A stretch of DNA of 64,000 nt from Acutalibacteraceae bacterium. Lineage in GTDB: Bacteria > Bacillota > Clostridia > Oscillospirales > Acutalibacteraceae. The stretch lies in NCBI GenBank assembly GCA_045601885.1, contig JAZSAN010000005.1, positions 21,851 through 85,850 on the forward strand, read 5' to 3'. The position numbers were made by a program, and so were the translations under genes. Under the pieces are notes generated by a model. That model saw only the letters and a list, made by a program, of their open reading frames with translations. It had not been told where the DNA came from and did not search any database. This document shows positions 13,485-59,800 of this stretch, in pieces; within the stretch, counting starts at the first letter, position 1, and each line of letters opens with the position of its first letter.

Positions 13485-14141
13485 ATGAAAAAAAGAAGAA
13501 AAAAGTGTTTTTATTTTATTTTATTTGTGCTTTTGTTTTTAATTTTAGTCGTTTTTATTTTTTTGAAAACGGATAAAAATCTACGAATTTTGATTCTTGA
13601 AAGCGCAGAAAGCAAGGTCGGCCTTATTATGTCTGACTGTGCTAACACATCCGTTAATAAAGCGATTAACGAAAATGATATTACATATTCGGATATTATC
13701 CGTGTTAACCGTGATGAAAATAATAACATAACATCCTTGCAAACTGATATAATAAATCTTAACAAGATAAGAACGGAAATCGACCGCTTTTTCTCTAAGG
13801 AGATGGAAAAAAACTCCATAATTAATTTAAATCTGCCAATTGGCTCTGTAATCGGCAATGAATATACAATAGGCAGAGGTCCTTGCATTAATTATGAACT
13901 TGAGGTCTCTGTCAACACTTCAACCGACTATAACAGTAAATTTTATTCCGCGGGTATTAACCAAACGCTTCATCAAATAACCGTGCTTGTTTCAGGCGAT
14001 GCTTATATAATGTCGCCTTGGTATAGAAACACAATAAAATTTTCAACCGAATATATCGTTGCCGAAACAGTTATAACCGGTGTAGTTCCCGAGACAATCG
14101 CAGATTTTGATGTTAAAAAAACAGGTGATTTTAATGAATGA
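13485..14141 (+). CDS. yunB: Sporulation protein YunB
   Basis: N-terminal TM segment, YunB-like AGINQTLHQITV...GVVPE, and AGGTG-9nt-ATG at 13485. Confidence 0.7.
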   Translation: MKKRRKKCFYFILFVLLFLILVVFIFLKTDKNLRILILESAESKVGLIMSDCANTSVNKAINENDITYSDIIRVNRDENNNITSLQTDIINLNKIRTEIDRFFSKEMEKNSIINLNLPIGSVIGNEYTIGRGPCINYELEVSVNTSTDYNSKFYSAGINQTLHQITVLVSGDAYIMSPWYRNTIKFSTEYIVAETVITGVVPETIADFDVKKTGDFNE

Positions 14142-16113
14142 AACAACTGCAAAAAATAGAATAGAACAGATTAGCGCAGAGCTTAGATATCATAGCATAC
14201 GTTATTATGTTGACGACAATCCCGAAATCGAGGATTTTGAATATGATATGATGATGCGCGAATTGCGTCAGTTAGAAGCTGAGTTTCCGCAGTTTGCAAG
14301 TGAAGATTCTCCAACAAAGAACGTTGGCGGAATTGCGTCTGAACAATTTTCGCAAGTTCGTCACTCGGTACGAATGGAAAGCCTTCTTGACGCCTTTAGT
14401 TTTGAAGAATTATTGGATTTTGATAAAAAAATCACCGATGAGTTTGGAAATATAGTATATTCAGTTGAACCTAAAATTGATGGCCTTTCAGTATCACTTG
14501 AATATAAAAACGGCGTCTTTGTAAAAGGCTCAACACGTGGTGACGGCGATGTTGGCGAAAACGTTACCGCAAACCTTATGACCATTAAAAACATACCTAA
14601 AAAGATACCATTTTCAGGCGATTTAGAGGTCAGAGGTGAGGTTTATATGCCTCATGACAGCTTCTTGAAACTTGTTGAAAAACAAGAAAATTTAGGCGAA
14701 AAGGTTGCCAAAAATCCGCGTAATGCTGCTGCGGGCTCACTGCGTCAGAAAAATCCTAAAATCACTGCCGAGCGTGAGCTTGATATTTTCGTATTTAACA
14801 TCCAAAAAATTAGCGAAAATGCGCCAAAATCTCACATAGAATCTCTTGATTTTCTAAAATCACTCGGTTTTAATGTATTGCCGAGCTATAAACTATGCAA
14901 CGGCATTAGCGAAGCAATTAACGAAATCAAAAAAATTGGCGAAAATAGGGGAGAGCTCTTATTTGATATTGACGGTGCGGTAATAAAGGTTGATAACATT
15001 TCAATCAGAAACAGCATCGGCAGTACATCAAAATATCCAAAATGGGCTATTGCATATAAATATCCGCCCGAAGAGAAAGAAACTGTTCTTAATAATATTT
15101 CTATTAATGTTGGCAGAACGGGTGTTTTGACACCTACGGCAGAATTTAAACCGATACAGCTTGCCGGAACTACGGTCAGCCGTGCCGTTTTGCATAACGA
15201 GGATTTTATTGCTGAAAAAGGCATTTGCATTGGCGATACCATTATTGTCAGAAAAGCCGGAGACATAATTCCTGAGGTTGTTGCCGTGTCATCACACAGC
15301 GAAAATTCCGTGCCGTTTTCGATGCCGAAATTTTGTCCTTCGTGCGGTGCTGCAGTCAGCCGCGACGCCGATGAAGCCGCAGTTCGTTGCACTAACACTA
15401 ACTGTCCTGCACAGCTTCTGCGACATCTCATTCACTTTTCTTCAAGGGATGCAATGGATATTGAAGGATTGGGACCTGCAGTTCTTAAGTTGTTACTTGA
15501 TAACAAGCTAATTGCCTCAACACTTGATTTATACAGTCTCAAAAAATCAGATATAAACACCCTTGAAGGCTTTGGCGATAAATCTGCCGATAATTTGATA
15601 TCTAATATTGAAAAGTCGAAAACAAACGATTTTTATCGTTTTATATATGCTTTAGGTATCAGGCATATTGGAAACAAAGCGGCAAAATTACTTGTTTCAA
15701 GATTTAATAACATAGATTCTATAATGAATGCAACCGCTGCTGATATTGAGGAAATTGACGGATTTGGCAGCGTTATGGCCGAGAGTGTCGTTGAATATAT
15801 GTCACTGCCGCAAACGCGTGAAATGCTTGAAAAATTCCGCACTTTAGGGCTTAATTTGTCTTCAGAAAACTCCGAAAATCAAGATAGTCGCTTTATGGGA
15901 AAAACTTTTGTTTTAACGGGTTCGCTCGAAAAATTCACACGTAACGAAGCATCAGAAATAATAGAAAAGCTTGGGGGAAAGACCTCTTCCAGCGTTTCAA
16001 AAAATACTGATTTTGTTCTTGCGGGCGAAAATGCAGGCAGTAAGCTTAACAAGGCAAATGCCTTGAATATTAAGGTAATCAGCGAAGATGAGTTTTTGGA
16101 TTTAATTAAATAA
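14134..16113 (+). CDS. ligA: NAD-dependent DNA ligase LigA (host)
   Basis: It has an Ia domain (KNRIEQISAELRYHSIRYYVDDNPEIEDFEYD), KIDG adenylation motif, Cys4 Zn finger, HhH and BRCT. The start at 14134 overlaps the end of yunB. Confidence 0.95.
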   Translation: MNETTAKNRIEQISAELRYHSIRYYVDDNPEIEDFEYDMMMRELRQLEAEFPQFASEDSPTKNVGGIASEQFSQVRHSVRMESLLDAFSFEELLDFDKKITDEFGNIVYSVEPKIDGLSVSLEYKNGVFVKGSTRGDGDVGENVTANLMTIKNIPKKIPFSGDLEVRGEVYMPHDSFLKLVEKQENLGEKVAKNPRNAAAGSLRQKNPKITAERELDIFVFNIQKISENAPKSHIESLDFLKSLGFNVLPSYKLCNGISEAINEIKKIGENRGELLFDIDGAVIKVDNISIRNSIGSTSKYPKWAIAYKYPPEEKETVLNNISINVGRTGVLTPTAEFKPIQLAGTTVSRAVLHNEDFIAEKGICIGDTIIVRKAGDIIPEVVAVSSHSENSVPFSMPKFCPSCGAAVSRDADEAAVRCTNTNCPAQLLRHLIHFSSRDAMDIEGLGPAVLKLLLDNKLIASTLDLYSLKKSDINTLEGFGDKSADNLISNIEKSKTNDFYRFIYALGIRHIGNKAAKLLVSRFNNIDSIMNATAADIEEIDGFGSVMAESVVEYMSLPQTREMLEKFRTLGLNLSSENSENQDSRFMGKTFVLTGSLEKFTRNEASEIIEKLGGKTSSSVSKNTDFVLAGENAGSKLNKANALNIKVISEDEFLDLIK

Positions 16114-48823: not shown

Positions 48824-49570
48824 TTAATCCTTCTGATTCATTTCGGTGTTTAACATACACATTGCAACGGCAGTAACAGCGGCAGTTTCGGTACGCAAAA
48901 TTCGTTTTCCGAGCGAGATAACCTTGCCGCCAATTTCCCTCGCAAATTTTATTTCATCTTCATCAAAACCGCCTTCAGAACCTATTAAAATACCAACGGA
49001 TTTGTAGTCTTTCAAACTATCAAGCACCTGCTTTGTTGCCTTCATTCCCTCTTCATTCTCATAAGGAACAATCAACAAATCAAGTTCCCCTGCCATTTTT
49101 AGTGCTTGGTTATAGGCTAAAACATCAAAAACCTTAGGTATGTAATTTCTTTTACTCTGTTTTGCGGCACTTTCGGAAATTGCCTGCCAACGCGCAACCT
49201 TTGATTTCTTTTTCTTGTCATCAAGCTTTACAACGCATCGGCTCATTTCGGTGGGCACAATAGCATATACACCAAGTTCAACCGATTTTTGAATTATTAA
49301 CTCCATTTTGTCGCCCTTCGGAAGACCTTGAAATAAATAAATGTTCAAAGGAAGCTCGGTATTTTGATAATTTTCTTCTATAATCAACGCCGTAACAGTT
49401 TCACTGTCAAAGCCCTCAATTTTGCACAAATCGCTCTTGCCCTCGGTACTGACGAGAAAGGTGTCACCAACATCCATTCGCAATACGTTAATTATATGAT
49501 TATAATCAGCCCCTGTAATGAAATAACGACTGTCAAATTTTTGCGATTTATCAACAAAAAAATTATGCAT
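48824..49570 (-). CDS. rsmE: 16S rRNA (uracil1498-N3)-methyltransferase
   Basis: MHNFFV start, PUA-like N-terminus, and a SPOUT knot (IGSEGGF...LGKRILRTETA). Confidence 0.85.
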   Translation of the reverse strand: MHNFFVDKSQKFDSRYFITGADYNHIINVLRMDVGDTFLVSTEGKSDLCKIEGFDSETVTALIIEENYQNTELPLNIYLFQGLPKGDKMELIIQKSVELGVYAIVPTEMSRCVVKLDDKKKKSKVARWQAISESAAKQSKRNYIPKVFDVLAYNQALKMAGELDLLIVPYENEEGMKATKQVLDSLKDYKSVGILIGSEGGFDEDEIKFAREIGGKVISLGKRILRTETAAVTAVAMCMLNTEMNQKD

Positions 49571-49679
49571 ACAATCACTTCCCTTTTGGCTAATTATAGC
49601 AAAAAACATCTATAAAATCAACACGAATAAAGTTCATATTTATAAACAAAAAAGCAGATATCCCATTGATATCTGCTTT

Positions 49680-49979: not shown

Positions 49980-50207
49980 TTACATTAAAACTTGTTTTCC
50001 TTGATTCATTTTTAACCAATGTAAAAGTGCAGTTTTTTCAACTATAAGTTTTGAATTTAACCTTATGCTTGGGAAACCTTTGGTGTTCATAATTTGATAC
50101 GCTTGTTGTTTTCCGCACCTAAAAATTCGTTGTATGTCATTTGTATTATAAATTATAGGTTCATTGTTGTCAATATCTTTCAGCGTTTCATTGAACGCAT
50201 TTTTCAT
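49980..50207 (-). CDS. Excisionase-family (HTH_17-like) DNA-binding protein
   Basis: DIQRIFRCGKQQAYQIMNTKGFPSIRLNSKLIVEKTALLHWL. It is the first gene inside the att junction. Confidence 0.5.
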   Translation of the reverse strand: MKNAFNETLKDIDNNEPIIYNTNDIQRIFRCGKQQAYQIMNTKGFPSIRLNSKLIVEKTALLHWLKMNQGKQVLM

Positions 50208-52015: not shown

Positions 52016-52206
52016 TAATCTATCTCCTTAATTCCATAATAATCTTTTGCACAATCTTCGGAACAAAACTTATTTCCGTCATCGTCAGTCCAAATTTCAT
52101 ATTCTTCGTATAAATCTTCTCCACATTTATCACACGTTCCTATTTTATGGTATTCACAATTAGGACACTGTGGATGACAAGGGTATTGTCGGCAAATATC
52201 ACACAT
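52012..52206 (-). CDS. Small Zn-ribbon protein (64 aa)
   Basis: CDICRQYPCHPQCPNC...CDKCG...C..C. It overlaps both neighbouring genes. Confidence 0.5.
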   Translation of the reverse strand: MCDICRQYPCHPQCPNCEYHKIGTCDKCGEDLYEEYEIWTDDDGNKFCSEDCAKDYYGIKEIDY

Positions 52207-52705
52207 CTTCTAATACCACCCATACATTTAATTTTTGCTTATTATATGGCATAGGAGAGTTGTGACAATCAGAAATATAAATATCAAGTTTATTGCCCTT
52301 GATTGCTCCGCCTCTATCTTGAACTGTTCTCCAGCCTATTCCCTCTATGTATATTTTACTTCCCATTGGAAATACAGATGTATCTGCTGCTACAGTAACG
52401 CCTTCTTGAACTTTTGCGCCACTTGCAGTTATGCCATTTGTTTTACCACAGCACTTATAACAACTATCATAATAGGTGATTTCAAATTCTCCGCAGTAAC
52501 CAAATAAATATGCTTTTAACACTTCCATATCGCCATTAAGACGAGCAACTTCTTTAGTTAGTTGATTTATCTCTATTGCTTGGTCTATAATATTATCTTG
52601 TGCAACGCTTAATTCTTTAGAATTATCTATACATAAATTACCGAATATAATTGATAAAAGCAAAGTTGTTGCTATAATTATTGTTTTTATTTTTGAAATA
52701 CTGAT
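52199..52705 (-). CDS. 3D-domain (MltA/YorM/YocH-like) protein with an N-terminal membrane anchor; start probably non-canonical
   Basis: 3D motif VAADTSVFPMGSKIYIEGIGWRTVQDRGGAIKGNKLDIY. The track's TTG start (52663) has no SD and falls inside the hydrophobic helix. AAAGGA-7nt-ATC lies at 52705. Confidence 0.7.
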   Translation of the reverse strand: MSISKIKTIIIATTLLLSIIFGNLCIDNSKELSVAQDNIIDQAIEINQLTKEVARLNGDMEVLKAYLFGYCGEFEITYYDSCYKCCGKTNGITASGAKVQEGVTVAADTSVFPMGSKIYIEGIGWRTVQDRGGAIKGNKLDIYISDCHNSPMPYNKQKLNVWVVLEDV

Positions 52706-52709
52706 ATAA

Positions 52710-54626
52710 TCATCCTTTCATCTTTTCAAATTCTTCTTCGCTAATTATCTTAATGCCGAGTTCTACGGCTTTCTTATATTTACTCGAACCAGACTGTTCA
52801 TTCGTAAGTAAGAAATCTGTCTTTTTAGAAACAGAACTTCCCATTTTTGCACCAAGTCGTTCCAATTCTTCTTGAATAGTTGTGCGAGTATAATAGTTTA
52901 ATGCACCGGTAACAACAACTGTTTTACCTGTAAATGGAGAGTTTACAATCTCTTTCTGTTCATTAGCAATATTTAATTCGTATATAAGTGCTGATATTTC
53001 CATTTGATTTTCTCGTTTCCAACCGAACGTTTGAAAACTTGTAATAACGCTTGGAGTAAAAACAGATGTGTCGCTCATATCTATGTCTAATTCTCCAAAC
53101 TCATTAATTTGACAATACTTAGCAACCTCTTTAGCAGTATTCTTTCCTACCATTGGAATACCAAGAGCACAAATAAATTTAGCCATCGTTGTATTGCGAC
53201 TATCTTGAATGCTCTGCCACAATCTATCCCAAGATTTTTGACCAAAGCCGTCTAACGCAATAATTTCATTCTTATATTGTATCAAACGATAAATATCAGA
53301 AAACTTATTTATCCAACCCTTTAAAATAAACTTTTCAAGCGTTGCTTCAGAGAGGCCTTGGATGTCCATTCCATCTTTTGAAACAAAATGAACAAACTTA
53401 TCAAGTATTTTTGCAGGGCAGTGCTCGTTAAGACAGTGCAAAGTCTCACAACCGTTGCTATTACATATCTTTAATTCTGTTGCGCAAGATGTGCATAAAA
53501 GTGGTCTTTTATACGAATTTGTACGAGTTAAGTTATTAGCAACTTTAGGTATAATGTCATTGGCCTTATACATCTCTATCTCGTCACCAATGCCTAATTC
53601 TAATGATTTAATATAGGAAAGATTGTGTAAAGTAGCCTTTGAGATTGTACTACCGCTTATATCAACTTCGTCAAAGATTGCAATAGGATTTACTAAGCCG
53701 GAACGACTTGTGTTCCATTCAATATCTCTTAGAATAGTTGTTGCAGTCTCGTCGTAGAACTTAAAGGCGAGTTGCCCTCTTAAATGATGACTTGTTGCGC
53801 CAAGAGATTCAAGATAATCTACGTCATCAAAAGATACTACAAGTCCGTCAATAGGGTAACTATACTTATCTGCAATTATCTTAAGGAAGTTAATACTTCT
53901 TTCGTCAAATCTATCAAGACGAGGAACAACCGTGAAACCAAGTGTTTCTAACCAATTAAGTCTTTCGCTGAAGGAATTATTCTCATAACCGCTAACAAGT
54001 TTCCAAGCAACGAATTGAATGTGTCGCTGTGCAGCAATTCCACTATCGAGCTGACGTACAGAGCCACTTACAAGGTTGCGAGGATTTTTATATTTCTCAC
54101 CTTCAGGAAGATTTGCATTTATCTTTTCAAAATCTTCGTATGTAATAATCGCTTCACCGTCAACTACCAAATCACCTCTATACGAAATGGTCTGCGGCAA
54201 GTTTGTGAAAACTAAAGCGTTATGTGTTACATCTTCGCCTTCAGTTCCATTACCACGTGTTTCGGCAGATATTAACTTACCCTCAGAATACTTAACACTA
54301 ATTGTCAATCCGTCCATTTTGAGCATTGTGAGGATAGGTTTGTTTCCAATGAATTTTTGCACTTCATCAATACTCTTGGTCTTATCAAGTGAAAGCATTG
54401 GGTGATTATGTTTTACTTTATTTAATTTATCTACAACATCAAATCCAACTGTCATTGTCGGAGAGTTAGCCAACTTAAAGTTGGTTTCACTCTCCAATTT
54501 TTTTAGCTCATCAAAAAGCTCGTCGTATTCGTAGTCGCTCATAGGTGAATTTGAGTTATTGTAATATTCATTACGAGCATTGTTTAAAAGCTCGGTTAAT
54601 TCTTTTATTCTGTTTATCTTTTCCGT
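52710..54626 (-). CDS. NAD-dependent DNA ligase (LigA-type), element-encoded; start probably non-canonical
   Basis: KMDG adenylation motif, OB fold, Zn finger (CTSCATEL...C..C), HhH and BRCT. Ia-domain homology continues 29 codons upstream of the first ATG (54542). Confidence 0.85.
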   Translation of the reverse strand, partial: TEKINRIKELTELLNNARNEYYNNSNSPMSDYEYDELFDELKKLESETNFKLANSPTMTVGFDVVDKLNKVKHNHPMLSLDKTKSIDEVQKFIGNKPILTMLKMDGLTISVKYSEGKLISAETRGNGTEGEDVTHNALVFTNLPQTISYRGDLVVDGEAIITYEDFEKINANLPEGEKYKNPRNLVSGSVRQLDSGIAAQRHIQFVAWKLVSGYENNSFSERLNWLETLGFTVVPRLDRFDERSINFLKIIADKYSYPIDGLVVSFDDVDYLESLGATSHHLRGQLAFKFYDETATTILRDIEWNTSRSGLVNPIAIFDEVDISGSTISKATLHNLSYIKSLELGIGDEIEMYKANDIIPKVANNLTRTNSYKRPLLCTSCATELKICNSNGCETLHCLNEHCPAKILDKFVHFVSKDGMDIQGLSEATLEKFILKGWINKFSDIYRLIQYKNEIIALDGFGQKSWDRLWQSIQDSRNTTMAKFICALGIPMVGKNTAKEVAKYCQINEFGELDIDMSDTSVFTPSVITSFQTFGWKRENQMEISALIYELNIANEQKEIVNSPFTGKTVVVTGALNYYTRTTIQEELERLGAKMGSSVSKKTDFLLTNEQSGSSKYKKAVELGIKIISEEEFEKMKG

Positions 54627-54629
54627 ATT

Positions 54630-56867
54630 TTAATCTCCTAACTGTGTCCATGTATTTCGTCTATTATGGCTTGTTCTAATACAAGTTGAAAATGCTTGAG
54701 GTTCTGCTAATAACAGACATCTCTTTTTTGCTCTGGTTAACAATGTGTAAAGCATACAGTTGTCAAGCAATTTGTAATGAGTATTATCTATAATACCGAT
54801 AACTGTTTGTTTTCCGGCACCTTGTAACTTATGTACTGTCATAGCATAAGCAAGGTCAAGTTGTTCTAATTCTTTTAATTGATATGTAATCTTTTTATTT
54901 TCTGCGAACTTAACATCACAACATTTTGTCTTGCCATTTTCATATATATCAGTTACATATCCTATTTCGCCATTAAAAACATTTTTGTCGTAATCATTAA
55001 CCGTTTGCATTACCTTGGCACCAACTCTAAACTCGGTATCGTTGAGTTTAATAAATCGTGTTTCATCAGGTAATAACTTGTTTTGAATCACTTTGTTTAA
55101 TTCTGATGTACTATTTAAACAATCCTTTTTTCGAGGAACGGCTATTACTACATTGTCTATACCGTCTGTTTCGATTGATTTTAAATATGTATTAACGGCT
55201 ATTTTAAATAACTGTTCTCTGTTATTTCTAAACATATAATACATATCTTGTAATTCCCCGTGAATGATTTTAGGTTGTGCATTTTCGGTGACTGGATTTA
55301 CATTTTCTCTAATGCGATTTGCGTCCGATAATATACCCGATTTAGCCGCCTGTCGCATTGGTTTTGTCAAGTTGTTTACACATTCTTTGTTTAATATATC
55401 TATTAAATCAGAGAATGTATTGCCATATCCTATTGGTGGTAACTGTTTGTGGTCGCCAGATACAATAAATCTTGTGTTTTTACTAAGAGCTTTAACTAAT
55501 GCCAAGAATAAACTTGAACTTACCATAGAACCCTCATCAAGAAAAACAACGTTTGAATATATAGGATTATCTTCGTTAAAAGTAAATTTACCCTCGCCTT
55601 GACAACCCAACATTCTATGTATTGTACTTGCCGAGAAACCAGTTGCTTCTGTAATTCTTTGTGAAGCCATGGCGCTCAAAGCACAAGCAGATATTGAATA
55701 ATTGTTCATTTGATATGCTTTAAGCACAGCTCTCATAATACTACTTTTACCCGTACCGGCCTTGCCAGTGATAAAGCTTACAGTGTTTTGTAAGGTTTTA
55801 TAGATTACCTTTCGTTGTTCTGGCACATATTCAAAACCTTGCTCTTCTTCGGCTACTTTAATAGCATTCTCAATTTGTTCGTCCGTGAATGAAATGTTGC
55901 TGATTTGCTTACTTTTATCAATTAAAAGTCTGTGTATTTTATTTTCAACATTGTAATAATGTTTTAGACCAACTTTTCCGTCCTCGCAATGTAAAAAAGA
56001 ATCGGAAGCAAAAAGTCTGTCCATATGTTCCATGCACTGCGGAACATTGTTGCTGATTGCACTTTTTAATATACTCTCAGACACCCAAGTGTGTCCTTCA
56101 CCGTCGCCAAGTTCACTCAAATAATATCTTGTAAAAGCAACTAAACGCTCCAAAGAATTGTATAATTCAGGTTTAAGCTTCATTGCTAAATCATCAATCT
56201 TTTTAAAACCCAATCCGCTAATTTTTGTCATTATATAAGGATTGTCTAAAAGTTGTTGCTTAAGCAATGCTGCATTCGGTTCTTCGTTTTGCAGTTTTTT
56301 AATCATTGCAAATGTAACACCAAGAGGTTTGAGCATTACAATAATATCTGACATTATATAGTTGTCAAAAATCTTTTCTTTAATTCTATTCCAAGTAAAA
56401 GCCTGAACGCCTTTTACTTTACTGTAGTCAATTTCGTCAACCTTACCACTTACTACGTCTTCAACGATATTTGGGTATGCGGCAAGTAAATTGTTAGCAA
56501 CGTCTTCAGATATTAACGACTTTAAATAAATCATTTGCGATTCTTTGCTTTGAGGAATTAGTGCAGTGATTGAAATCGGTTCGTATTGCCAACCAAAACG
56601 ATTATCTTTTTTAAGTCTACATTTTAGTCCATATTGACCACCGATTTGTAATCTTTGCATCTTTCCAGAAAGAGTGCTTATTTTATCAGTTCTTGTTTTA
56701 TCAGCTTCGTCAAAAGGATTTAAAGATGGTTGAACACCTACCGGCATTTCATCTGCATTACCTGAGAATTGATAAACACCCCAACAAGTATCGTCGCTAT
56801 AATATCTTTCATCAACGATTGTTATTTTTAATTCATAAACTATATCTGTATCAAAATTCTCGATTAT
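54630..56867 (-). CDS. RecD2/Dda-like SF1B helicase; start probably non-canonical
   Basis: GKAGTGKS, VVFLDEGSMV, SGDHKQLPPIG, AMTVHKLQGAG, LYTLLTRAKK. The frame is open for 46 codons upstream of the ATG at 56747. Confidence 0.8.
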   Translation of the reverse strand: MIENFDTDIVYELKITIVDERYYSDDTCWGVYQFSGNADEMPVGVQPSLNPFDEADKTRTDKISTLSGKMQRLQIGGQYGLKCRLKKDNRFGWQYEPISITALIPQSKESQMIYLKSLISEDVANNLLAAYPNIVEDVVSGKVDEIDYSKVKGVQAFTWNRIKEKIFDNYIMSDIIVMLKPLGVTFAMIKKLQNEEPNAALLKQQLLDNPYIMTKISGLGFKKIDDLAMKLKPELYNSLERLVAFTRYYLSELGDGEGHTWVSESILKSAISNNVPQCMEHMDRLFASDSFLHCEDGKVGLKHYYNVENKIHRLLIDKSKQISNISFTDEQIENAIKVAEEEQGFEYVPEQRKVIYKTLQNTVSFITGKAGTGKSSIMRAVLKAYQMNNYSISACALSAMASQRITEATGFSASTIHRMLGCQGEGKFTFNEDNPIYSNVVFLDEGSMVSSSLFLALVKALSKNTRFIVSGDHKQLPPIGYGNTFSDLIDILNKECVNNLTKPMRQAAKSGILSDANRIRENVNPVTENAQPKIIHGELQDMYYMFRNNREQLFKIAVNTYLKSIETDGIDNVVIAVPRKKDCLNSTSELNKVIQNKLLPDETRFIKLNDTEFRVGAKVMQTVNDYDKNVFNGEIGYVTDIYENGKTKCCDVKFAENKKITYQLKELEQLDLAYAMTVHKLQGAGKQTVIGIIDNTHYKLLDNCMLYTLLTRAKKRCLLLAEPQAFSTCIRTSHNRRNTWTQLGD

Positions 56868-59800
56868 ATAAGCACTCCTTTCTGCTTAGTTTGTTGTAAC
56901 CATACCTCGTAAGGCTTTAATTTTTCTAACACTACCCTATCTTCGTTATCTTTTTTAACCAATAGAGCAAGTTGCTGACCAGTCTTAACCATATCTTCAT
57001 ATTCTTTTAATTTTGAATGCCATACAATACATTCAATTAATCCAAAGGAAGAATAGATATTCATAAACGCAAATTGTTTTTTATTTTTATCTTTCTTCTT
57101 TTGTACCTTTGCTACAATGCCAACAATAGTACACTTATTGCCAATTTCAACTTCGCTAAAAGGTTCTAAGTATTCATAAGCTTTGTCAAATGGGTTATTG
57201 TTAAGGAATATTTGCAAACTTTCAAATTCCCAGAACTCTTCGTTTCTTAAATATTTGTCAAAGCACTCCGATTGAAACGCCTTAAGTTTTTCTTGTTCGT
57301 TAATTTCAAAGTTTTGTAATCGCACTTTGTTGTAATCTGTAAGTAAGCGTTCCTTATCGACCTTTTTGCCATCTCTATAATCGTCAACATTTAATCCAAA
57401 TGCTTCAAGTTTACTATACGGTGACGGAACGGAAGAGACAGGTTTAAAATTTCCCTTAGTATAGGTTGACATTAAATATTTCATTAACGCCTTCTTTTTA
57501 TCCTTACAGGGTATTGCTCCAGATTTAATTAACGAAATGATTTGCGTCTTCTTTGGATTTACTCTGTCTATAAAGTCTTGCATTGAAGCGAAATTGCAAT
57601 TTCTGTTATTTAAAATTTCTGTAGCAAAGTTTTCTCCAATACCTTTTATTGCCGATAATCCAAATAAAATTGCTTCATTATTAATTGAAAAATTCATTTG
57701 CGATTTGTTAATATTAGGTGGTAGAACTTTAACTTCAAATTGTTTTGCATCTAAGATATATTTATTAAGCATTCCTGCTTTATCTTTATTAAGGTTAAAT
57801 AATGCCTTAAAGAAGTACATAGGATAATATGTTTTTAAGAATGCAGTTTGGAAGCATATTACGGCGTAACTGAAGGAATGCGATTTGTTAAATAGATATC
57901 CACCTTTTTGAGATAGGTCATCACTAATCATTTTTGCAATTTCTTCACTATATCCGTTATCAATAATCTCTTGATATAACTTTGCCGATTCTTCCTTAAC
58001 CAACTCAATATTCTTTTTACCGATTGCTTTACGGAAAAGGTCGGCACCACCATAACTTCGTCCACCAAATGTACGAACAACATCAAGCAACTGTTCTTGA
58101 TAAATCATACAACCATATGTAGACTTTAAAATAGGTTCCATATCAGGATGAATGTACTTGACTTTACTTGGGTCGTGTTTACATTCTATATATTCTTCAA
58201 GTGCACCCATAGAATCGGGACGATATAGAGCAAGGACTGCCGATAAATCTTCAAGAGAATTTGCTTGAAGTCTGATTAACAAATCTTTCATACCGGCACT
58301 TTCCACTTGGAATACACCATTGGTTAGCGCTTTGTTGAGTAACTCGTATGATTTAGTATCATTCTCAAAAACAGGATTGTTAATATTAATATCGTACTCG
58401 TCGATATTAAGGTCTGTCTGAATTTCCTTAATCATATTTAGGGTTTGTACACCCAAAATATCGAATTTAATAATGCCTATTTCTTCAATAATTCTCTTAT
58501 CAACTTGAATAACGTGTTCGCCATCTCCGCCGAGTTTCATAGCCATATAGTCATTAATATCGGTATCAACAATGCCTACACCACCAGAGTGACAAGAAAC
58601 AGTTTTAATTCTTCCGCTTAATTTACTTGCTATATCAAACAATTCTGCGTACTGAGGATGTTCTGCAACAAATTTTTCATTATTTTCAAGACACTCAGCA
58701 AATGTATCGTAAGAAAATCTCTTGCTCAATTTGTCCATTTCGTTGTAATTAAAGCCAAGAACCTTTCCAACGTCTTTAATTGCAACGACAGGTGTGATAT
58801 ATGAAAAGTTAATTATCTGACAAACACGATTTTCGCCATACTTATTAATTAAATAGTTAATAACCGTTTCTCTATCAGATACATCTGTGTCAGTGTCCGG
58901 CATTGAAATTCTTTCTGGATTTAAGAAACGCTCAAAAATCAGACCGTACTTAATTGGGTCAAGGTCGGTAATATGCAAACTGTAGCAAACTAAACTTCCT
59001 GCACAACTGCCTCTGCCCGGCGCAACCATAATATTTTTTGACCTTGCAAAGTTAATAAAATCCCAAACAATCAAAAAGTATCCGTCAAAGCCCATAGTAT
59101 GAATGGTTTCTAATTCGTAGTTAATTCTTTCTCTATAAATCTCTTGCTTTTCTTTAGGAAATTTATCAAAACCGCGCTCTACCCAACCCTCGTTAACGAG
59201 ATGTTTTAAATATGTATAGTTATCATTAAAACCTTCAGGTAGCGGAAAAGTAGGCAACTTAGGGCTTTGAAACGGCATATTTACCTCTTCAATCATATCG
59301 GCAATAATATTTGTATTTGCCAAACCGACATCAACATTTTCTTTGCCGATTTGATTGTCCATAATGTCGTGAATTTCTTCTTCGCTTTGCAAATAACAAC
59401 CTTCATATGTTTCGCTCATTGTTTCTGAATCGTGAGCGATTTGTACGTGCCTTGCCTGATAATATAAATCTTCTTTTGTAGCAGCATGGCTATCAGTTGT
59501 AATGATATAAGGAGTATCAGTAGCTTTTGAAAGATGAAGAATCTTTTGATTATATATTTCTTGGTCAATGTGATTATGGCTCTGCATTTCTAAATAGAAA
59601 TAAGGAAATATTGATTTGTATTCATTGATATATTCAATACACTTATTCAAATCGCTTTCTCTTGCTATTTTAGAAGCTAAACAAGCTGAAGAAACAATAA
59701 GATTGTTTGCATAAGGTGCAAAGTCACTTAGCTGAACACGAGGCTTGTAATAAAAGCCTTCCAAATTAGATTTAGTAACTAATTTATTGATTGCTTTTCT

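Follow-up and report, generated by a model that had tools for sequence, protein, structure and literature searches.

Translational coupling at ATGA and TAATG stop-start overlaps occurs in bacterial and phage operons. Conserved near-cognate start codons are described in Staphylococcus aureus, in infC (AUA), ccpN (AUA) and cvfC1 (AUU); these AUA and AUU codons stand behind strong, extended Shine-Dalgarno (SD) sequences, give about 10–30% of the initiation seen with AUG, and attenuate expression (PMC13009471). The infC and pcnB genes of Escherichia coli are cited in the same paper as starting at AUU. In E. coli reporters, ACG initiates with an N-terminal Met at 0.1–1% of AUG, with Thr also seen in one culture, and AUA initiates at 1–2% (10.1101/063800). 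Here, the junction between a RecD2-like helicase gene and an NAD+-dependent DNA ligase gene is described in a prophage element of an Acutalibacteraceae bacterium. The window, that is, the whole stretch of DNA analysed, comprises 64,000 nucleotides (nt) of contig JAZSAN010000005.1 (assembly GCA_045601885.1, positions 21,851 to 85,850). Sequence comparison indicates that translation of the ligase probably starts at a near-cognate ACG at 54626–54624, and that the product would be a stand-alone NAD+-dependent ligase of 638 amino acids (aa).

The helicase-ligase junction and domain Ia of the ligase

The open reading frame (ORF) from ATG 54542 encodes an NAD+-dependent DNA ligase of 610 codons. After the helicase stop, the minus strand reads AAT ACG GAA AAG ATA AAC AGA ATA AAA GAA ... 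TCA CCT, and then ATG 54542. The 29 in-frame codons between the stop and this ATG translate to NTEKINRIKELTELLNNARNEYYNNSNSP and include no ATG, GTG or TTG; a preliminary description of the window had given the coordinates, the translation and this lack of a canonical start correctly. A run of 29 codons without a canonical start is not improbable by itself, with a chance roughly estimated at about 0.2 for about 5% start codons per codon. What chance would not explain is that the stretch is conserved at the protein level and has a ribosome-binding site in front of it. The features of the junction are as follows.

54633–54641, minus strand: ribosome-binding site TTAGGAGAT, with the core AGGAG at 54639–54635, within the final codons of the helicase and 8 nt 5′ of the ACG
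54630–54632, minus strand: stop codon TAA of the RecD2-like helicase, read as ...TQLGD-TAA (54632–54630); TAG in relative L135
54627–54629, minus strand: spacer AAT, the probably untranslated triplet after the stop and before the start; AAT, ACT or ATT among relatives, with the following codons conserved
54624–54626, minus strand: ACG, near-cognate to AUG and proposed as the initiation codon, placed where homologues have their initiator Met
54543–54623, minus strand: 27 codons, EKINRIKELTELLNNARNEYYNNSNSP, helix 1 of ligase domain Ia with the Tyr-Tyr pair, from the ratio of nonsynonymous to synonymous changes (pN/pS), family columns, PDB alignment and AlphaFold2
54540–54542, minus strand: internal ATG (Met29), from which gene callers begin, preceded by TTACAATAACTCAAATTCACCT
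52710–54626, minus strand: NAD+-dependent DNA ligase, proposed full coding sequence, 638 aa plus stop, from Pfam, PDB homologues, family alignment and AlphaFold2

The stretch upstream of the ATG codes for protein and forms part of ligase domain Ia. In a 40-sequence family alignment, five columns upstream of Met29 show no variation (L10, N15, Y21, Y22 and N23) and four more are nearly invariant (R6, E9, L14 and R18); downstream of it, D31 and D35 are invariant and Y34 is nearly so. An ungapped alignment to S. aureus LigA (3jsl) places Y21/Y22 on residues 22/23, and D31, Y34 and D35 on D32, Y35 and D36. The set of residues typical of LigA domain Ia (the equivalents of Y22/H(Y)23 and of D32/Y35/D36) is complete only with the ORF extended to 54626. 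The preliminary description had placed the aromatic pair, Y22/H23 in E. coli LigA, upstream of the first ATG, and both alignments bear this out with Y21/Y22. It had also aligned the stretch with the host LigA encoded in the window. The register of that alignment is homologous, but the match of the 29-mer alone is not significant (7/22 identities, E=0.2), and the conclusion holds on better evidence. The 29-mer is identical to residues 3–22 of the family member P0071 at 17 of 20 positions. Alignments of the extended protein (tblastn, phmmer) run from query residues 1–8 in ligases from phages, metagenome-assembled genomes (MAGs), metagenomes and the PDB, including the phage LigA homologues with which the preliminary description had proposed a comparison; with the solved LigA structures, the alignment begins at residue 5–8. 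The Pfam Nlig-Ia match, at residues 7–59, is sub-threshold (19.9 bits, the cut-off being 27; E=0.0012).

In an AlphaFold2 model of the extended ligase (mean predicted local distance difference test score, pLDDT, of 82), a helix at residues 2–24 (block pLDDT 89 and 80) is followed by a helix at residues 31–48, forming the helical hairpin of domain Ia. Over the 24 codons after the triplet at the proposed start (ACG, or ATA in some relatives), 13 distinct sequences give a pN/pS of 0.087, with minimum changes at codon positions 1/2/3 of 4/4/18. Because pN/pS is low over these codons and the changes are mostly at third positions, protein-level constraint starts at or just after the ACG/ATA triplet. 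Domain Ia is described as unique to NAD+ ligases and needed for the formation of ligase-adenylate from NAD+ in PMC1920237, which cites Sriskanda and Shuman (2002) on this point. Since the extension is helix 1 with Y21/Y22, a protein started at Met29 would be missing half of domain Ia, including the invariant tyrosine pair.

In its modules, the protein reads as an ordinary LigA-type NAD+-dependent DNA ligase: domain Ia, an adenylation domain (KMDG), an OB fold, four Cys, a partial HhH and a BRCT domain. Pfam matches are DNA_ligase_aden (E=2.8e-50), OB (E=9e-22), BRCT (E=2e-13) and a weak HHH_2 (E=3e-4), and the best PDB matches are LigA adenylation domains (E=3e-44). In the family alignment, K103, D105 and G106 (LKMDG; the KxDG lysine motif) are invariant. 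The Pfam scan of the ligase gave no zinc-finger (ZBD) match; C378, C381, C398 and C403 are nonetheless invariant in the family alignment. The host LigA is also encoded in the window, on the plus strand at 14134–16113 (start at ATG 14134, 659 aa; every Pfam module exceeds its threshold), and the cell thus carries two NAD+ ligases, the host LigA and the prophage ligase. A program-made ORF list starts the host LigA at TTG 14107, probably too far upstream.

The ligase start codon in the window and its relatives

The ribosome-binding site ahead of the ACG is present and conserved, and the position of the ACG/ATA triplet matches that of the Met in homologues. The SD sequence AGGAG lies 8 nt upstream of ACG 54626–54624. 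AGGAG occurs 10 times on the minus strand between 47 and 64 kb, preceding gene starts in 6–7 of the 10 cases, and the chance of finding it 5–10 nt before any given site is about 0.002; two undoubted starts of the window, ATG 62875 and TTG 52015, have an equal geometry (AGGAG + 8 nt). An SD was sought ahead of ATG 54542 and none was found, TTACAATAACTCAAATTCACCT lacking the SD core. Homologues with a canonical start open with M-x-K-I-x-R-I-K-E-L (MEKINRIKEL in P0096, MNKINRIKEL in P0071), and the window reads [ACG]-E-K-I-N-R-I-K-E-L; the position of Met29 is occupied by I, V or M in homologues. Both ACG and ATA are one base away from ATG. RNA folding at the junction gives no structure above that of shuffled sequences (z=-0.53), and no pairing is predicted between the SD and +40. 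A scan of the prophage part of the window found no tRNA able to serve as a special initiator; the element extends further, beyond the window. From the position of the triplet and its ribosome-binding site, we infer that ACG is the initiating codon and that Met is inserted there.

Gene calls begin at the internal Met (MSD[YAF]EYD) in 55 of the 70 nearest protein clusters (63–100% identity), and the missing canonical start is for this reason a property of the clade and not a one-off lesion. The junction itself was compared in 16 distinct sequences, namely the window and 15 more from different samples and MAGs (the MAGs labelled Acutalibacteraceae). Only five close loci (L027-29, L102, L135) came from scanning genomes and metagenomes, and the other junctions were obtained by exact-protein look-ups. 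The public phage collection contained no close relatives, all matches being below 60% protein identity, and was used for N-terminal alignment only; the IMG/VR viral contigs contained no close relatives either, with a best match of 47%.

In all 16 junctions TTAGGAGA is invariant, and the ninth base is T, C or A. The stop before the ligase is TAA, except for TAG in L135, and the triplet after it varies between AAT, ACT and ATT (N/T/I, second-position changes). The start triplet is ACG in 12 of the 16 (the window, L027-29, L140, L141, L144, L151, L152, L153, L155 and L156) and ATA in the other four (L102, L135, L136 and its duplicates), and is followed in every case by GAA AAG AT. with the frame open. 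Neither triplet is confined to one of the two ligase sub-lineages (..NSNSPMSDYEYD and ..NSDSVMSDAEYD) or to one of the two kinds of upstream gene. One kind is the RecD2 helicase; the other (L027-29, L141, L144, L155 and L156, around 2900) encodes an ExoX-like_C protein of 244–260 aa, with a weak HD match in some. The same 15-nt block, CAGTTAGGAGATTAA, closes these two unrelated genes (..QLGD*; ..KQLGD* in the ExoX-like_C gene). Because CAGTTAGGAGATTAA ends two unrelated genes, this block, which brings about the in-frame relation, moves together with the start region of the ligase and not with the helicase. It marks what looks, by its sequence, like a recombination boundary at which alternative cassettes are swapped in ahead of the ligase. 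The in-frame relation of helicase and ligase across the TAA, to which the preliminary description drew attention, is real but, as a meaningful feature, probably incidental. The alternative upstream cassette consists of an ERCC4 gene and then the ExoX-like_C gene. An upstream out-of-frame ATG in ACATGGACAC combined with a frameshift (a 26-codon ORF in another frame) was also considered as a start and rejected, being absent in relatives with the other upstream gene.

A canonical ligase start is found in three relatives, each with an extra gene between the upstream gene and the ligase. The insert in L147 (2178–3008) is a LAGLIDADG endonuclease with a helix-turn-helix (HTH), a 276-codon ORF open from an ATA directly behind the same TTAGGAGATTAAAAT. 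The 77 codons before its first canonical start hold the HTH (residues 6–45) and the first LAGLIDADG motif (domain from residue 70), and it appears to be an independent gene starting at a near-cognate ATA on the old ligase ribosome-binding site. The insert in L148 (2250–2981) and L149 is an HNH endonuclease, with an AP2 domain in L148, directly after AAT ACG G; that in L150 (627–1430) is a 237-aa ORF in frame with the ACG and the first seven ligase codons. In the insert-bearing relatives, the downstream ligase has an SD of its own (spacer about 7–8 nt), TTG, ATG or GTG at the equivalent place, and a diverged 5′ coding sequence. A canonical ligase start thus occurs in 3/3 loci with an insertion and 0/16 without, a comparison limited by the selection of the canonical-start cases on protein length and by the phylogenetic dependence among the loci.

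In the proposed mechanism, the AGGAG 8 nt upstream would position the 30S subunit at ACG 54626–54624, in an unstructured, A-rich context, and the initiator tRNA would read this codon as Met. Translational coupling would probably assist initiation, through ribosomes fresh from termination at the helicase stop, 3 nt upstream. Weak start codons would hold the helicase and the ligase to a fraction of the upstream product, made only while the upstream gene is translated. Several points weigh against a start at the ACG. The codon is outside the NCBI table 11 start codons, and in systematic measurement it is a very weak initiator, the host there being E. coli and not a member of the Clostridia (10.1101/063800). 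The GAA-AAG that follows is invariant in 16/16 junctions, which leaves no synonymous-change evidence that these two codons are translated, and a start at ATA/ATT 54617 is therefore formally compatible with the data. The junctions were sampled from proteins called at 610 aa, a sample from which the frequency of ATG at this position in the wider clade is not derivable. Coupling and attenuation, finally, we infer from geometry only.

Initiation at the in-frame Ile codon ATA 54617–54615 (ATT in several relatives) instead of at the ACG is unlikely. The codon is always ATA or ATT, both recognised rare bacterial starts within table 11, and the two codons before it never vary and so show no mark of translation. 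It is, however, 17 nt from the SD, compared with the usual 5–10 nt at real starts in the window; its ATA/ATT variation is synonymous at an Ile that homologues conserve (M-x-K-I), with two to three residues held before it; and the ACG/ATA alternation at 54626 would be left without explanation. The preliminary description had left three options, namely ACG at 54626, ATA at 54617 or 54608, and read-through of the TAA; the comparative data favour the ACG and disfavour the others, the two ATA codons being 17 or 26 nt from the SD and too far from it. A start at ATG 54542 is quite improbable as well. It would yield a ligase without helix 1 of domain Ia, the lost stretch including EKINRIKELTELLNNAR, with the upstream codons as a remnant. 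This ATG is the first canonical start, is used by gene callers and NCBI records, and is a Met throughout the clade, and a truncated isoform could still be made from it alongside the full-length form. Yet strong purifying selection acts on the upstream codons in the ligase frame (pN/pS 0.087), which is open in 16/16 junctions, the ATG has no SD, Met29 is replaced by I or V in some homologues, and the product would lack the invariant Y21/Y22 and helix 1, in a domain that PMC1920237 describes as needed for the NAD+ reaction.

Read-through of the TAA, with a helicase-ligase fusion as the sole source of a complete domain Ia, is very improbable, even though one TAA is all that interrupts the shared frame, both in the window and in every examined relative without a homing endonuclease. 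The ligase would need to fuse to two unrelated partners. The codon after the stop varies between N, T and I without protein-level constraint, and the stop itself is TAG in L135; no stimulatory RNA structure is predicted downstream, the region being unpaired (z=-0.53). TAA, TAG and TGA all terminate genes in the module, which gives no sign of stop reassignment, and where homologues have a ribosome-binding site of their own, the ligase stands alone and begins at the equivalent position. Neither a constant upstream partner with constraint across the stop nor a stimulatory context or structure, the marks by which read-through would be recognised, is found at this junction. To our knowledge, efficient TAA read-through is not known in bacteria. 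The most improbable explanation is gene decay, with the start lost in a defective prophage, or an assembly error at the ACG. The element is integrated in a bacterial chromosome, and ATG to ACG is a single transition; the same state nevertheless recurs in independent assemblies from many samples, and in ligases up to about 34% different in protein sequence. The full-length frame is intact and constrained, the catalytic motifs are invariant, and no frameshifts or stops were seen in the 16 junctions.

Neighbouring genes and the integrated element

Two genes adjoining the ligase show candidate near-cognate starts.

54630–56864, minus strand: RecD2-like helicase with a probable near-cognate start, ATC 56864–56862 or ATA 56867–56865; called from ATG 56747
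52199–52705, minus strand: 3D-domain protein with a possible start at ATC 52705–52703 (ATT in L153); called from TTG 52663

The helicase, a 705-codon ORF with Pfam matches to AAA_30, SH3_13 and HHH_RecD2, probably also starts at a near-cognate codon and would be annotated about 40 residues short. Its candidate starts overlap the stop TAA 56866–56864 of the DNA polymerase III alpha gene, as ATAATC; L140 has CTAATA at this junction, and TAATC/TAATA resembles the classic TAATG overlap. The SD GAAAGGAG at 56882–56875 is followed by the ATA after 7 nt and by the ATC after 10 nt, and a search for an SD before the called ATG 56747 found none. The window (56747–56885) was compared here with L102, L136, L140, L151, L152 and L153 (around 640–800). 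The roughly 40 in-frame codons 5′ of the ATG (IENFDTDIVYELKITIVDERYYSDDTCWGVYQFSGNADE) are conserved at the protein level down to 78% nucleotide identity (L153), and no canonical start was found in this extension, except for a GTG 1 nt after the SD in L153. Helicase homologues that start at ATG open with MFDEDEILKF...RYYSEDTTWGVYGFS, matching (I)ENFDTDIVYEL...RYYSDDTCWGVYQFS; the search with a 250-aa N-terminal fragment returned 13 proteins, mostly fragments, which places the Met and is too few for statistics. A weak OB_YrrC match implies that the OB domain begins before the called ATG.

The 3D-domain gene is a possible third near-cognate start. Its ATC lies 7 nt after AAAGGA and adjoins the ligase stop TGA 52712–52710, 4 nt past it. 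The frame is open from 52717, and the extension restores a Lys-rich N-region ahead of a hydrophobic segment; ATGATTATATC is conserved in most relatives, and an SD sought before the called TTG 52663 was not found. The case is weaker than those of the ligase and the helicase, the N-terminus being variable and an in-frame TTG being present in some relatives. A small ORF, MIISVFQK*, occupies 52686–52713 of the window on the minus strand, out of frame with the 3D gene. It is 8–12 codons long in relatives, with an ATG that overlaps the ligase stop (ATGA), and its first codons are conserved while its end is not. A -1 slip on CAAAAAT from this ORF into the 3D gene was considered and rejected, the A-run not being conserved in L136, L148 and L153.

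The prophage element spans at least 49.98–64 kb of the window, its boundary lying between a host RsmE-like gene (48824–49609) and an HTH_17 (excisionase-like) gene at 49980–50207. In relatives, a tyrosine integrase or serine recombinase is found just past the HTH gene; the window has no recombinase there, and that of its element may be at the other end, outside the window. The replication operon runs in the order DnaB-like, primase-like, RecJ-like, DNA polymerase III alpha, RecD2 helicase, LigA, 3D protein, ThyX, deoxynucleoside monophosphate (dNMP) kinase, NT5C and HTH. Promoter and terminator counts in a scan of 52–61 kb are at or below shuffle expectation, with no intergenic terminator, which fits a single operon and is uninformative on an internal promoter. 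Further homing-endonuclease-type genes occur across the replication module of relatives (L141:5592–6233, L148:5701–6342 and L156:1685–2146; SegE-like GIY-YIG and a NUMOD4-containing gene), and in L141 and L148 the ThyX-like ORF beside such a gene looks shortened or split. The replication module seems to be a hotspot for mobile endonucleases.

Within the operon, the ligase ACG is 3 nt after the helicase TAA, the helicase ATC/ATA overlaps the polymerase TAA, and the 3D ATC is 4 nt after the ligase TGA. At least two, perhaps three, consecutive cistrons would start 0–7 nt from the preceding stop, with the SD inside the upstream gene and a start codon that differs from AUG by one base. Whether near-cognate starts form a systematic, operon-level design in this Acutalibacteraceae prophage lineage (AUA/AUC in the helicase, ACG/AUA in the ligase, AUC/AUU in the 3D gene, AUA in the inserted homing endonucleases), with every start close to the upstream stop and preceded by a strong SD, is doubtful, and the idea is put forward tentatively. 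Were it true, ACG would be a naturally selected bacterial start outside the table 11 set, with coupling, and possibly the stringency of host initiation factor 3 (IF3), governing how the module is expressed.

Significance and comparison with known systems

If the ligase does start at the ACG, a natural start codon disallowed by bacterial gene finders and NCBI table 11 would be conserved in a gene that needs its encoded N-terminus. At least 55 ligase protein clusters of the P0001–P0070 set, including the NCBI-sourced P0027 and P0029, would then be recorded about 28 residues short, with half of the NAD+-binding domain missing, and in the same records the adjacent helicase would probably be about 40 residues short. 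Replication enzymes could simply be produced in graded amounts if their cistrons followed one another with weak starts and tight coupling, and any homing endonuclease inserted at this site would likewise stay weakly expressed. In the literature searched, no relevant report of a natural ACG start in a bacterium or phage turned up, which is absence of evidence only. Attenuation by weak starts is already established; as a form of it, a conserved ACG start in a gene of a bacterium or phage is unusual.

The ligase shares its domain order and catalytic residues with LigA and with phage LigA homologues such as CST032 of Clostridium phage c-st, to which it is 42% identical. The c-st ligase and most homologues start ordinarily, whereas the clade described here has no ordinary start ahead of domain Ia. 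The ligase resembles infC, ccpN and cvfC1 of S. aureus and infC and pcnB of E. coli in having a conserved near-cognate codon at the position of the homologous Met, behind a strong and well-spaced SD, with attenuated initiation to be expected. It differs from these AUA/AUU cases in that the codon is mostly ACG, a second-position mismatch outside table 11 that alternates with AUA, and in that it lies in a prophage replication operon whose adjacent genes seem to be alike; the prophage case is known from sequence comparison. The ACG reporters of Hecht et al. (10.1101/063800) show that bacterial ribosomes can start at ACG and insert Met, as is proposed for the prophage ligase, but those reporters are artificial and reach 0.1–1% of AUG, whereas the prophage ACG is naturally conserved and its product needs the encoded N-terminus. 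As at ATGA and TAATG overlaps, the upstream stop is 0–7 nt from the next proposed start and the SD lies within the upstream coding sequence, the TAATC/TAATA of the helicase being an analogue of TAATG. In the prophage operon, however, the codon at which translation would restart is a near-cognate and not ATG.

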